Below are positions 1 to 57,146 of a stretch of 57,930 nt of DNA, piece after piece. The notes beneath the pieces were generated by a model, which had not been told where the DNA came from, searched no databases, and saw only the letters and a list, made by a program, of their open reading frames with translations. The stretch is from Minisyncoccota bacterium. Its GTDB lineage: Bacteria; Patescibacteriota; Minisyncoccia; UBA6257; GWB1-50-10. The DNA lies in assembly GCA_020059915.1 (NCBI GenBank), contig JAGVBB010000002.1:128129-186058 (forward strand), read 5' to 3'. Each line of letters opens with the position of its first letter. Positions within the stretch are counted from its first letter, which is position 1. A program made the position numbers and the translations under genes.

Positions 1-1093
1 GGAGAGATAAGAGCACTGGTGTTCCTCCTATTTTTTCCACAAAACGTGTAGCTATTGTTTTATTAAGCGTGGTACGCACGAGATATGATGCGGCAATTGA
101 TTTTTGTTTTGACTGATTTGTTATTGCATATCCAAAATACGATGGGTAACTTAGTGTCTTTTTTGCAGATTTCGGTTGTGGTATTGGTGCAATACCAAAA
201 TTTAAGTTTTGATTTTTTGTTTTAATTGTCTTTATATCACGTTCATAACCGATTATCATTGCAGATTGCTCGGATGCGAATGCATCAATTGAAAACGGCA
301 TAGTCTCATTCCATGTATAGGTTTCTGATTTTGGATCGGAAAATTTTGTATAAAATTCCATCGCGCTTTTTCCTTCATTTCCTGCAAAGGATGCTTGAGT
401 GAACTCTTCGTTAACCATTTTTGCGCCCGCGCGAATCATCAGTGAAGAGAGAATGTCTGATGCATGGAGAATTGTTCTTTCTGTTCCGCCAAGCGATATC
501 GCTGCTTGTTCTATATTTTCATCTTTGTCTTTTTTGACGAGTTTTGGAATCATTTCATCAAGCGCTTCCCATGTTTCCGGTGGGTATATAAATCCTGCAT
601 TTCCCAATATATCTCGGTTATAAAAAAGCACGAGAGTGTCTATGGTATAAGGAAGCGCATATGTTCCATTTTTGTCAGCAAAGTCATATCGCCATACCGT
701 TTCTGGAAATGATTGTTGTAGTTGTAGTGGTGAAATATATTGTGAAGGAATTTGGGCGATCTTATTTTTTAATTTTGGAATGTCGGCATTTTCTACTGAA
801 ATAATATCTGGCGCTTTCCCCAGAGAAAATGCCTCTGTAAGCGCATACATATAAGATTCTTTATCTGGAAATCCTTTATATTGAACTGAAAAATTTGGAT
901 ATTCTGTTTTCATAGAATCAGCCGTACCGATAAAAAATTCATTATCGTTCCCTATGCCCCATATGGAGATAGTTATCGGATTGTTTTTAGGATCATTTGT
1001 TTGGAGTCCTGGAAGAATTCCCACAAGGATGAGAATAAAGAGTGCGACCCCAATACCAACTGCCCCAATGATAAGCATTCGTGAACGGTTCAT
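1..1093 (-). CDS. Extracellular solute-binding protein (ABC sugar-binding type), runs off the window start
   Basis: Not in the ORF track because it is partial. Manual translation from 1093: MNRSRMLIIGAVGIGVALFILILVGILPGLQ...ITISIWGIG...YPNFSVQYKGF...GKAPDII; N-terminal membrane anchor and SBP_bac_1-like motifs. Confidence 0.8.
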   Translation of the reverse strand, partial: MNRSRMLIIGAVGIGVALFILILVGILPGLQTNDPKNNPITISIWGIGNDNEFFIGTADSMKTEYPNFSVQYKGFPDKESYMYALTEAFSLGKAPDIISVENADIPKLKNKIAQIPSQYISPLQLQQSFPETVWRYDFADKNGTYALPYTIDTLVLFYNRDILGNAGFIYPPETWEALDEMIPKLVKKDKDENIEQAAISLGGTERTILHASDILSSLMIRAGAKMVNEEFTQASFAGNEGKSAMEFYTKFSDPKSETYTWNETMPFSIDAFASEQSAMIIGYERDIKTIKTKNQNLNFGIAPIPQPKSAKKTLSYPSYFGYAITNQSKQKSIAASYLVRTTLNKTIATRFVEKIGGTPVLLSL

Positions 1094-1203
1094 CCCGTTA
1101 GAAAATCTGACAATTTGGTTTGTTCGACAATAGGATTATTTCTGTGCGTATATACATATACTATTGGTTATTTATGGATGGTCCGTTTTCTAACGGGATT
1201 CAT
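1088..1203. mobile_element. MITE-like start-codon element, copy 1 (core 1094-1197)
   Basis: 12-bp perfect TIR CCCGTTAGAAAA/TTTTCTAACGGG, flanked on the minus strand by ATGAAT and ATGAAC; the second provides the gene's ATG. Confidence 0.75.
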
Positions 1204-23246: not shown

Positions 23247-23276
23247 TCTTATAATAAAATACGATATACTATTTTT

Positions 23277-23410
23277 ATAGATCCCGTTAGAGGTAGCACT
23301 GCTTTGTGAGGACGTGATTCCAACGGTGTATCTACATAATGTAATACAAAAAACTATGAATAAAAATAAAATGTCGCAATCAAATATGTATTATTTCTAA
23401 CGGGATGGAT
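23277..23410. mobile_element. MITE-like start-codon element, copy 2 (core 23283-23404)
   Basis: CCCGTTAGA/TCTAACGGG TIR flanked by ATAGAT and ATGGAT; the second contains the ATG at 23405. Confidence 0.72.
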
Positions 23411-23719
23411 CACTTATTTGCATATGGAACACTTGCAGATCCGGAGGTGCTCAAAAAAATAATTGGGAGAGCGGTAGCCCCAACACCAGATAAATTACAT
23501 GGATATCAGTATAAAGATACAATGGTTGTAGTTGATGGAGAGTTTTATCCAGGAATTGAAGAGTGTGAGGAGCTCTCGGTTGATGGCGTTGTGTACGATA
23601 TATATCAAGAAGAACTTTCACTAATTGATCAATATGAGGGTGGTATATACAAACGAAAACGAGTTCGTTTGGAGAGTAATATTGATGCGTTTGTATACAT
23701 TCCAGATCACATAGATTAA
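23405..23719 (+). CDS. Gamma-glutamylcyclotransferase (AIG2-like) family protein
   Basis: LFAYGTL, YPGI, VDGVVY, IDQYEG..YKR. Confidence 0.9.
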   Translation: MDHLFAYGTLADPEVLKKIIGRAVAPTPDKLHGYQYKDTMVVVDGEFYPGIEECEELSVDGVVYDIYQEELSLIDQYEGGIYKRKRVRLESNIDAFVYIPDHID

Positions 23720-56895: not shown

Positions 56896-56918
56896 AATAC
56901 CCCGATCGGGGTGTTTTA

Positions 56919-56996
56919 TTATCGTGCTCGAAGGTTCATCTTTTTTCCTGCCTTCTTTGCGTGTTTTTTCTTTGCAAGTTTATTTTTCTTATTCAT
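56919..56996 (-). CDS. 25-aa Lys-rich peptide
   Basis: MNKKNKLAKKKHAKKAGKKMNLRAR*; stop abuts the terminator hairpin at 56892-56920. Confidence 0.55.
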   Translation of the reverse strand: MNKKNKLAKKKHAKKAGKKMNLRAR

Positions 56997-57113
56997 CCCG
57001 TTAGAAGTAGATTGCTGTAAATAATCTACATAATTTATTAATTATGTTTCGACTTATATTGTTATATATGATTCACGTATAAAAGTGCAATTGTAACTTC
57101 TAACGGGATTCAT
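56991..57113. mobile_element. MITE-like start-codon element, copy 3 (core 56997-57107)
   Basis: 12-bp perfect TIR CCCGTTAGAAGT/ACTTCTAACGGG with a perfect 6-bp flanking direct repeat (ATGAAT on the minus strand). Confidence 0.8.
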
Positions 57114-57146
57114 AATCTATGTTTGATGATACGCTAAAGTAACTTT

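Follow-up and report, generated by a model that had tools for sequence, protein, structure and literature searches.

Mobile inverted-repeat elements on the start codons of apparently leaderless genes in a Minisyncoccota bacterium, and a candidate GIY-YIG nuclease for their mobility

The closest described relatives of the elements reported here are the Ssn nucleases and their NTS repeats (Chenal et al. 2025, PMC11893778). According to the accessible text of that article, Ssn proteins are single-domain GIY-YIG nucleases of 94 amino acids (aa) that cut only single-stranded DNA (ssDNA) beside a hairpin repeat. The Ssn family corresponds to the CDD entry cd10448 (GIY-YIG_unchar_3). The ssn genes are flanked by such repeats, and the NTS-ssnA-NTS arrangement was likened there to an insertion sequence, its mobility not being shown. 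We have analyzed a family of short inverted-repeat elements that sit on start codons in the genome of a Minisyncoccota bacterium (G000; 686 kb, 37% G+C, 7 contigs). Three copies lie in a stretch of 57,930 nt, G000:C3:128129-186058, which is referred to as the window and to which positions given without a contig refer. The family is real, widespread, and well delimited, and it has an unusual target and an unusual expression strategy.

Like Ssn/NTS as presented in the accessible text of PMC11893778, the family includes a nuclease of ~90 aa that consists of a GIY-YIG domain only, its gene lies between hairpin-forming repeats, and the repeats also occur many times without a gene. The junction of flank and stem, ...GTCAT-TCCCG... 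in NTS, reads ...TTCAT-CCCG... here on the strand opposite the host gene, which is a resemblance. Whereas the NTS flanks are separate hairpins of 20-50 nt, the two ends of the present elements pair with each other across the whole cassette. Target duplications, empty sites, placement on and rebuilding of start codons, and use of the ATG and TGA of the host are not described in the accessible text, in which the terms "start codon" and "Patescibacteria" each have 0 occurrences. The published SRM motif, HGTCWYN(0-2)YYVSBRHN(0-5)WNVSBRGN(0-2)RNCYNB (PMC11893778), gave 3 matches in G000 against 0-4 in five shuffles, and none of the 3 lay within 100 bp of an element or of a GIY-YIG gene. The family is thus not without a known relative, because Ssn/NTS is already in print. 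An earlier remark, that no named IS or MITE family with these ends is known, holds insofar as an Rfam search of the elements gave no family match.

Bacterial MITEs (miniature inverted-repeat transposable elements), of which the Correia elements are an example, and insertion sequences resemble the present family in their inverted ends, fixed short duplication, many short non-coding and rarer coding copies, and presence/absence polymorphism. Unlike the known ones, the present family encodes a GIY-YIG nuclease as its sole protein and no known transposase, and its insertions fall almost only on the first bases of start codons and share one orientation, with a terminal base that restores the start. 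The IS200/IS605 group, with REP/RAYT and PATE elements, uses HUH/Y1 transposases, has subterminal hairpins rather than inverted ends, and makes no target duplication. Its mobility is thought to use ssDNA hairpins, its short, asymmetric, specific targets fix the orientation, and small hairpin derivatives are abundant. The proposed ssDNA-hairpin mobility, the orientation-fixing targets, and the abundance of small non-autonomous hairpin forms are likenesses to the present elements, which differ in having duplications and in a genome where Y1_Tnp was not found. Rickettsia palindromic elements are palindromic selfish repeats, ~100-150 bp long, of a reduced genome that tolerates them as in-frame inserts within coding sequences (CDSs). 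The present elements are likewise palindromic selfish repeats of ~100-150 bp that sit on genes of a reduced genome without being lethal, but none of 56 oriented short copies (0/56) is fused in frame to the host protein, and the host CDS is unchanged. The Discussion of PMC11893778 names IS200/IS605 with REP/RAYT and PATE elements, and the accessible text lists Rickettsia among SRM-rich genomes. A literature search, made mostly at abstract level apart from PMC11893778, returned no GIY-YIG cassettes with inverted ends at start codons.

Structure, target site, and mobility of the element

The clearest window copy, copy 3, has a 111-bp core with inverted ends that are perfect for 12 bp and, on the strand of the gene (minus), ATGAAT on both flanks (57108-57113 and 56991-56996), as a preliminary description of the window had reported. 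The same ends recur in copies 1 and 2, and, again as described, all three copies lie on the starts of unrelated genes. All 6 exact 9-mer ends in the window are paired. The features are as follows.

56997..57107, minus strand: element copy 3 (clearest), 111-bp core with CCCGTTAGAAGT...ACTTCTAACGGG ends, non-coding, MITE-like
57108..57113, minus strand: upstream 6-mer ATGAAT of copy 3, made up of the original A, TGAA from the duplication, and the element's terminal T
56919..56996, minus strand: host gene of copy 3, a 25-aa basic open reading frame (ORF), MNKKNKLAKKKHAKKAGKKMNLRAR
57126..57131, minus strand: candidate -10 box TATCAT, 12 nt 5' of the upstream ATG of copy 3, kept in G001 and G002; putative promoter
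1094..1197, minus strand: element copy 1, 104-bp core
1198..1203, minus strand: upstream 6-mer ATGAAT of copy 1
1..1093, minus strand: host gene of copy 1, a 433-aa solute-binding protein (SBP) that starts ATGAAC and is truncated at the window edge
23283..23404, plus strand: element copy 2, 122-bp core, distal inverted ends imperfect
23265..23282, plus strand: TATACT -10 box (23265-23270), 6-nt spacer, and upstream 6-mer ATAGAT (23277-23282) of copy 2
23405..23719, plus strand: host gene of copy 2, a gamma-glutamyl cyclotransferase-like protein of 104 aa, starting ATGGAT

Pfam assigned the host protein of copy 1 to SBP_bac_8 (E = 5.4e-22) and that of copy 2 to GGACT (E = 4.2e-15). The very basic 25-aa ORF is kept in G001, G002, and G023, and in G023, which belongs to another genus, it likewise carries an element (L073). 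It is probably a real small protein gene, of a kind easily missed by automatic annotation. The upstream ATGAAT of copy 3 is the start of an upstream ORF (uORF), MNPVRSYNCTFIRESYITI*, just as first described. A hairpin at ~56896-56920 resembles a terminator common to the 25-aa ORF and the convergent HD-domain gene.

A whole-genome pattern search at any spacing detected 9 exact end pairs in G000, 104-277 bp long, and an ATG opening an ORF follows the element directly in 9/9. Two degenerate copies were also found, one (C3:29494-29599) at the start of a 434-aa ORF with ATGGAT/ATGGAT flanks and the other (C4:~22101) intergenic, in the spacer 5' of an L3-like gene. Placement on a start codon therefore applies to 10/11 copies in G000, where only ~425 of 7997 ATGRR sites (~5%) are start-like. 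The host genes are unrelated, encoding phosphoglycerate kinase (PGK), MreC, QueA, signal peptidase I, the SBP, the GGACT-like protein, a T2SSE ATPase, enolase, and the 25-aa basic ORF; pgk, eno, and lepB are each single-copy, and each has an element at its start.

Among 41 genomes of the same family and order, the pattern CCCGTTAGA-N70-300-TCTAACGGG was present in 20, with 1-18 copies per genome, and the reversed-pattern control gave 0 matches. With RTG appended, the pattern was found in 26/301 genomes sampled across the phylum, belonging to many families, against 1 match for the control. A chance origin of the element ends is excluded by their pairing, by the genome-wide placement at ATG, and by the reversed-pattern control in the 41 genomes. 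For the anatomy of the element we used 79/125 of the matches outside G000 together with the 9 of G000 (the 46 omitted are mainly from G002, G036, G028, and G025); a looser pattern applied to this set yielded 92 copies, some nested, tandem, or short, of which 64 could be oriented and 56 of these are short.

The bases before CCCG and after CGGG are complementary in 92/92 copies (T..A 67, C..G 24, G..C 1). Outside these terminal bases, an exact 4-bp duplication is present in 54/92 copies, and the duplicated 4-mers, mostly TGAA, covary between the two sides (TGAA, TGGA, TGAG, TGTA, TTTA, CTTG, TTGA, TAAA, TCAA). Given the complementary terminal bases and the identical, covarying four bases outside them, we interpret the element as Y-CCCGTTAGA(N)...(N)TCTAACGGG-R; its inverted ends measure 12-14 bp, and a 4-bp TGRR duplication flanks it. 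The insertion point is just after the first base of the start codon, A|TGRR. The 6-bp direct repeat seen originally is thus better divided into the 4-bp TGRR duplication and the complementary terminal bases. The strong target preference noted at the same time was confirmed, the target being A|TGRR rather than ATNNAT.

This arrangement leaves the host CDS unaltered, since the last base of the element (A or G) and the duplicated TG rebuild the host ATG or GTG; in copy 3 the host ATG is the element's last A plus the duplicated TG. The original A and TGRR persist on the 5' side as a second ATG. Copies with C..G ends (L013, L036) read ATGAA-C|...|G-TGAA, so that the host start is now GTG and the upstream ATG is kept. 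Directly 3' of the element we found ATG in 63/92 and GTG in 13/92 copies (76/92 together, an enrichment at start codons that had been anticipated), and an ORF of at least 50 aa opens at that codon in 64/92. The orientation of the element relative to the host gene is constant.

Stem positions 1-12 are Watson-Crick paired in 56-64 of the 64 oriented copies, and the helix is limited to 12-14 bp. Positions 10-12 differ between subfamilies and are still complementary in 56-60/64 copies. The interiors, described beforehand as mostly divergent, are indeed not conserved between subfamilies, but within subfamilies their 3' parts are conserved.

The family is mobile DNA. For all three window copies (3/3), genomes of the same genus have precisely empty orthologous sites. 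At the site of copy 3, G001 and G002 have a single ATGAAT and no element and keep the 25-aa gene. For copy 2, at the GGACT gene, G001 and G002 again have an empty site, which reads TATACT-N6-ATGGAA. For copy 1, at the SBP gene, the site is unoccupied in three genomes (G001, G003, and G006), whereas G002 has a degenerate copy there and G004 a CCTGTTAGA variant. Two further copies were examined by comparing Logan contigs of 4 metagenome runs (3 studies) with G000:C6:23200-43100. At the ATPase gene a contig joint skips exactly 111 bp in 3 runs, with 6 letters that fit either side; at the enolase gene a joint skips exactly 111 bp in all 4 runs, with 5 such letters. At both copies the skipped 111 bp equal the 105-bp core + 6. 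Conversely, elements at a xerC-like gene of G002 and a proS-like gene of G001 occupy sites that are empty in G000. In total, five G000 loci are empty in relatives, as single ATGRRN sites of the kind that the preliminary description had predicted, and two loci of relatives are empty in G000.

The targets look leaderless, as judged from four features. Position -6, where the upstream 6-mer begins, is occupied by A in 62/64 oriented copies. A TANNNT hexamer precedes it at the two peak spacings, 7 nt (n = 17) and 6 nt (n = 8), in 25/64 copies. A Shine-Dalgarno (SD)-like motif lies upstream in 3/64. In G000 as a whole, TATAAT-N6/7/8-ATG is enriched (41, 31, and 29 sites, respectively, versus ~12 at other spacings), and 45-61% of the ATGs at TATAAT-N6-8-ATG sites open ORFs of at least 100 codons. 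In the window, TATAAT (1211-1216) precedes the upstream 6-mer of copy 1 with a 7-nt spacer, a leaderless-type promoter. The upstream start codon of copy 2 has been lost, because ATAGAT is a decayed copy of ATGGAT. These motifs suggest that the host genes are leaderless, in which case the element would begin at +7 of the transcript and the upstream ATG would be its 5'-terminal AUG. An outward promoter inside the 3' end of the element was considered and rejected, since no passable -10 box lies at an appropriate distance from the host ATG.

A GIY-YIG nuclease gene in full-length copies and its reading frame

One of the nine G000 copies, outside the window at C2:131650-131926 and 5' of pgk, is 277 bp long and contains an 88-aa ORF. 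The encoded protein matches the Pfam GIY-YIG family (PF01541) with E = 5.5e-18 and 65.5 bits against a cut-off of 22.6; the domain spans residues 4-70, and there is no second domain. The motifs YTYVL, LYTGYT, RKRLKEH, IYYEAC, and REKYLK, aligned across full-length copies, are intact in the G000 protein, and we take them to hold the catalytic Tyr, Tyr-x-Gly, Arg, His, and Glu positions of the GIY-YIG fold. Its best PDB sequence matches are the UPF0213 proteins 1zg2 (E = 1.6e-9) and 1ywl. The preliminary description, which envisaged long copies enclosing a transposase or recombinase, was correct in that coding copies with the same ends exist, but the enzyme that they encode is a GIY-YIG nuclease. 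Likewise, its term non-autonomous fits the short copies, which are non-coding and mobile and leave the CDS intact, but the family has a likely autonomous GIY-YIG partner beyond the window.

Coding copies have a constant architecture of ~274-283 bp with a single-domain GIY-YIG gene of 88-95 aa, in which the element's 3' end codes for the C terminus of the nuclease. Homologues of the nuclease are present in 31/41 related genomes, in multiple copies and up to 10 per genome. In a survey of 29 nuclease loci, the best one per genome, 18/29 had flanking inverted repeats of at least 8 bp, with L101, L104, L108, and L120 among the possible chance matches. The cassette ends are lineage-specific and mostly CCC-initial (CCCGTTAGA, CCCGTACGA, CCCGATAGT, CCCAGTACA, CCCGCACCT, CCCTCACCC, CCCAGCACC, CCCCCACAC), and several of the cassettes lie on ATGAA starts with a TGAA duplication (L096, L116). 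A nuclease at least 58% identical to that of G000 was found in 10/12 genomes with at least 5 CCCGTTAGA copies versus 1/29 others.

The 100-190-bp copies have only the ends in common with the nuclease-coding copies. As a general claim, the idea that short copies arose from the nuclease copy by internal deletion was rejected, since in G000 the two kinds agree only over the 12-14-bp ends; in G020 their agreement at the 3' end covers ~24 nt. Membership of the group I introns was also examined, with a negative outcome: TIGR01453, used as the test for an intron-encoded type of endonuclease, scored 22.4 bits against a cut-off of 56, Rfam gave no intron match even at E <= 1, and the short copies, at only ~100 nt, count against it.

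A second GIY-YIG cassette of G000 (C2:200900-201250) encodes a protein 51% identical to the first and has 11-bp ends, CCCCGTGAGAT...ATCTCACGGGG; it lies 45 nt 5' of an L10-like gene, off the start codon. A third such gene, at C2:90602-90802, lacks inverted ends.

At three loci (L010, L048, L077; MNPVR..., MYPVR...) the open nuclease frame takes in the upstream 6-mer from its first base on, so that the host-derived ATG would be the start of the nuclease. Elsewhere (G000, L004) the nuclease starts at its own ATG, 20 nt into the predicted transcript. In 6/9 full-length copies the nuclease stop is a TGA at +1 that overlaps the rebuilt host ATG as ATGA, and 2 copies are broken. The conserved end reads Pro-Val-Arg in the nuclease frame, and TGA and TAG close the other two frames at once.

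The upstream ATG survives in 36/56 oriented short copies. The uORF that it opens spans the whole element in 15/36, stopping at the right-end TAA (-7, n = 9) or at TGA (+1, n = 6). Interiors are open in the uORF frame in 15/36 copies, in the other frames in 5/36 and 8/36, and on the antisense strand in 27/168. The predicted RNA fold of copy 3 has an energy of -33 kcal/mol (z = -5.7), with a 14-bp closing helix that takes in both the A and the U of the real start codon, in agreement with the hairpin leader proposed at the outset; the fold of copy 1 is weaker (z = -2.2).

Mobilization and expression of the elements

We favor, with a probability of roughly 65%, the reading that these are mobile start-codon cassettes that are mobilized by the nuclease, prefer leaderless genes, and make use of a translational relay. 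The nuclease would mobilize the family by acting on the hairpin formed by the two ends in ssDNA, as Ssn nucleases act on NTS hairpins. Leaderless genes would be the preferred targets, either because they are targeted or because they alone tolerate insertion, and the upstream ATG would serve as the 5'-terminal AUG of the mRNA. In full-length copies the nuclease ORF would be started by this 5' AUG or by the internal ATG 20 nt in, and it would be ended on the host ATG (ATGA) by the TGA of the downstream duplication. Since the nuclease stop overlaps the host ATG, the host gene may be translated by termination-reinitiation. In short copies a uORF could take the role of the nuclease ORF, or the host AUG could be used directly. 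The presence of elements on the single-copy genes pgk, eno, and lepB points to host tolerance and supports the same reading.

A bolder version, which we advance tentatively and rate somewhat below even odds, is that the family represents a new class of prokaryotic transposon whose sole enzyme is a ~90-aa GIY-YIG single-strand nuclease recognizing the hairpin of its own ends and homing to leaderless gene starts, parasite and host gene being read successively from one leaderless mRNA. The target might then be the single-stranded DNA of the transcription bubble, from +1 to +6. Such an element would bring no promoter or ribosome-binding site and, in some copies, no start or stop codon of its own; the duplicated target would supply the 5'-terminal AUG of the host as start and TGA as stop.

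If the nuclease does move the elements, GIY-YIG would join the short list of catalytic types that drive prokaryotic transposition, and Ssn/NTS pairs would gain a concrete selfish-element origin, one only suspected by their discoverers as far as the accessible text indicates (PMC11893778). The elements land on the starts of apparently leaderless genes in a 686-kb genome that leaves little room for error, and the damage is mended by a terminal base. They make two questions testable: how internal AUGs behind a structured, SD-less leader are translated in ultra-small bacteria (by relay, scanning, or processing), and whether single-strand nucleases can find transcription start sites. On the practical side, the elements mislead gene callers at start codons, and the nuclease-hairpin pairs are candidate programmable ssDNA tools, as the accessible text of PMC11893778 proposes for Ssn.

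Several observations weigh against the favored reading. With regard to the nuclease, its link to mobility is correlative. G028 has 12 copies, and a nuclease was not found there at E <= 1e-8; G025 has 6 copies and a nuclease only 40% identical to that of G000; and within G000 the short copies have only the 12-14-bp ends in common with the full-length copy. Moreover, GIY-YIG enzymes are hydrolytic nucleases, none is known to perform transposition, and inverted ends together with a 4-bp duplication are the textbook signature of DDE transposases.

With regard to the relay, a 5'-AUG mechanism cannot be general, because the upstream ATG has been lost in 23/64 oriented copies. The full-length copy of G000 itself has lost it (ACGAGT), and no short-copy uORF of G000 reaches the host ATG. 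The excess of open uORF frames is suggestive only, since the copies are related and come from few genomes. With regard to the target, transcription starts were placed from -10 motifs only, and the gene of copy 3 may have a short leader, because TATCAT sits 12 nt upstream. Selection against intragenic insertions explains part of the start-codon bias; a rough survivors-only expectation is ~35% or less.

Finally, 38/92 copies have no exact duplication, and some left 6-mers recur within this group, for example:

ATTCAY: L015, L034, L063, L076, L083
ATTTAY: L059-L061, L091
ACTTGY: L008, L017, L020, L050

Simple decay fails as an explanation of these non-matching left flanks, because ACTTGT and ATGGAT differ at four positions. 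Insertion between R and TG with zero duplication was rejected as well, since ACTTGT and ATTTAT are missing from the empty sites that G000 has in place of L020 and L091.

The points concerning the nuclease also bear on the first alternative, namely that the elements are standard MITEs and that a classical transposase, for example of the DDE type, which is absent or unrecognized here, moves them in trans, the GIY-YIG gene being a passenger or a selfish homing-type nuclease. The ends and the short fixed-length duplication typical of DDE transposition, the copy-rich G028, and the restriction of identity to the ends in G000 would all be expected, as would a variable cargo, which in G018, G007, G025, G217, G234, and G250 consists of whole tRNA genes (listed below). 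However, none of the five major transposase families searched for (DDE_Tnp_1, rve, DDE_3, Y1_Tnp (PF01797), and Transposase_mut) was found in G000, which is 100% complete, although control genomes gave matches. Among end pairs up to 300 bp apart in relatives and at whatever distance in G000, the only protein encoded in coding copies is GIY-YIG. The constant 274-283-bp architecture, the use of the element's 3' end to encode the nuclease C terminus, the matching ends of each nuclease lineage, and the coincidence of high copy number with a close nuclease in 10/12 genomes also argue against this alternative. We therefore regard this explanation as unlikely.

A second alternative leaves DNA mobility in place and replaces the relay: at the RNA level the 14-bp helix would be excised or shortened, with a double-strand-specific RNase as one candidate, or splicing would take out the element, so that the mRNA would start at or near the real AUG. 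Consistent with this, the closure of the helix falls precisely on the real start codon, the predicted 5' end of the transcript lies 4 nt from the foot of the helix, and many copies have no upstream ATG yet sit on single-copy housekeeping genes. In the duplication-free copies, moreover, the left flanks can pair with the right-flank RTGAA, TTCA perfectly and TTTA and CTTG only through G.U, a pair that is available in RNA only; the closing helix thereby becomes longer, and the upstream ATG is gone. On the other hand, the stem is only 12-14 bp, and G.T and A.C mismatches on the sense strand at stem positions 10-14 are equally frequent (17 versus 17), so that no RNA-specific selection was detected. 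There was no match to an Rfam ribozyme or intron family even at E <= 1, and the interiors are unconserved between subfamilies. Processing at the RNA level is, in our estimation, more doubtful still.

It is improbable that the element is a domesticated, portable module of translational control in which the hairpin hides the start codon and the uORF tunes host expression. The same starts are occupied across genera (queA in G000 and G001; the 25-aa ORF in G000 and G023; the SBP gene in G000, G002, and G004), the start codon is partly paired, and uORF frames stay open in a subset, but at these genes close relatives do without the element, the functions of the host genes are unrelated, interiors diverge freely, and copy number follows nuclease presence as for a parasite. 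Programmed ribosomal bypassing, known from T4 gene 60 and the mitochondrial byps, likewise places a hairpin-forming non-coding insert between duplicated codons near the start of a CDS; this early suggestion finds no support here, as the second (take-off and landing) codons differ in 5/9 G000 copies and no stop follows the take-off codon, the uORF continuing P-V-R.

Variant cassettes and solitary ends

Complete tRNA genes (Val-CAC, Leu-CAG, Ala-CGC, and others) replace the nuclease between the same inverted ends in the following cassettes.

L007, G018:C5:5519-5621: tRNA-enclosing cassette
L008, G007:C36:9714-9830: tRNA-enclosing cassette
L022, G025:C4: tRNA-enclosing cassette
L042, G007:C37:3579-3679: tRNA-enclosing cassette
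G217:C12:4275: further tRNA-enclosing cassette
G234:C4:123928: further tRNA-enclosing cassette
G250:C18:50208: further tRNA-enclosing cassette

At three or more loci, L007, L008, and L022 among them, the tRNA cassette, of ~100 bp, lies inside the apparent anticodon loop of a tRNA gene of similar type, with no duplication there. ARAGORN (introns allowed) and Rfam called only the inner cargo tRNAs at L007, L008, and L022. A scan of 168 deletion joints per locus for splicing of the outer tRNA gave many arbitrary calls and no clear mature tRNA.

G000 also has two solitary ends, at C2:117310 and C2:118051 (ACTTCTAACGGG and then ACRGGTTT), 741 bp apart and with no partner nearby. Read on the other strand they are left ends that follow ACCTGT or ACCCGT, resembling the non-duplicated left flanks found elsewhere.

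In G014, L006, L037, and L038 (contigs C8, C21, and C32) consist of 78-bp units with ends CCCGTTAGAGAG...CTCTCTAACGGG, arranged head to tail and 6 nt apart; they are small arrays, not single insertions. A minimal form of 27 nt (L075, G011:C192:29285-29311) comprises the two ends and a 3-nt loop (CCCGTTAGAAATTTAATTTCTAACGGG) and resembles the short NTS-type hairpins in the accessible text of PMC11893778. In two genera, elements (L040 in G018 and L078 in G020) occupy the start codon of the gene for the 37-38-aa ribosomal protein L36 (MKVRASVKKIC...).

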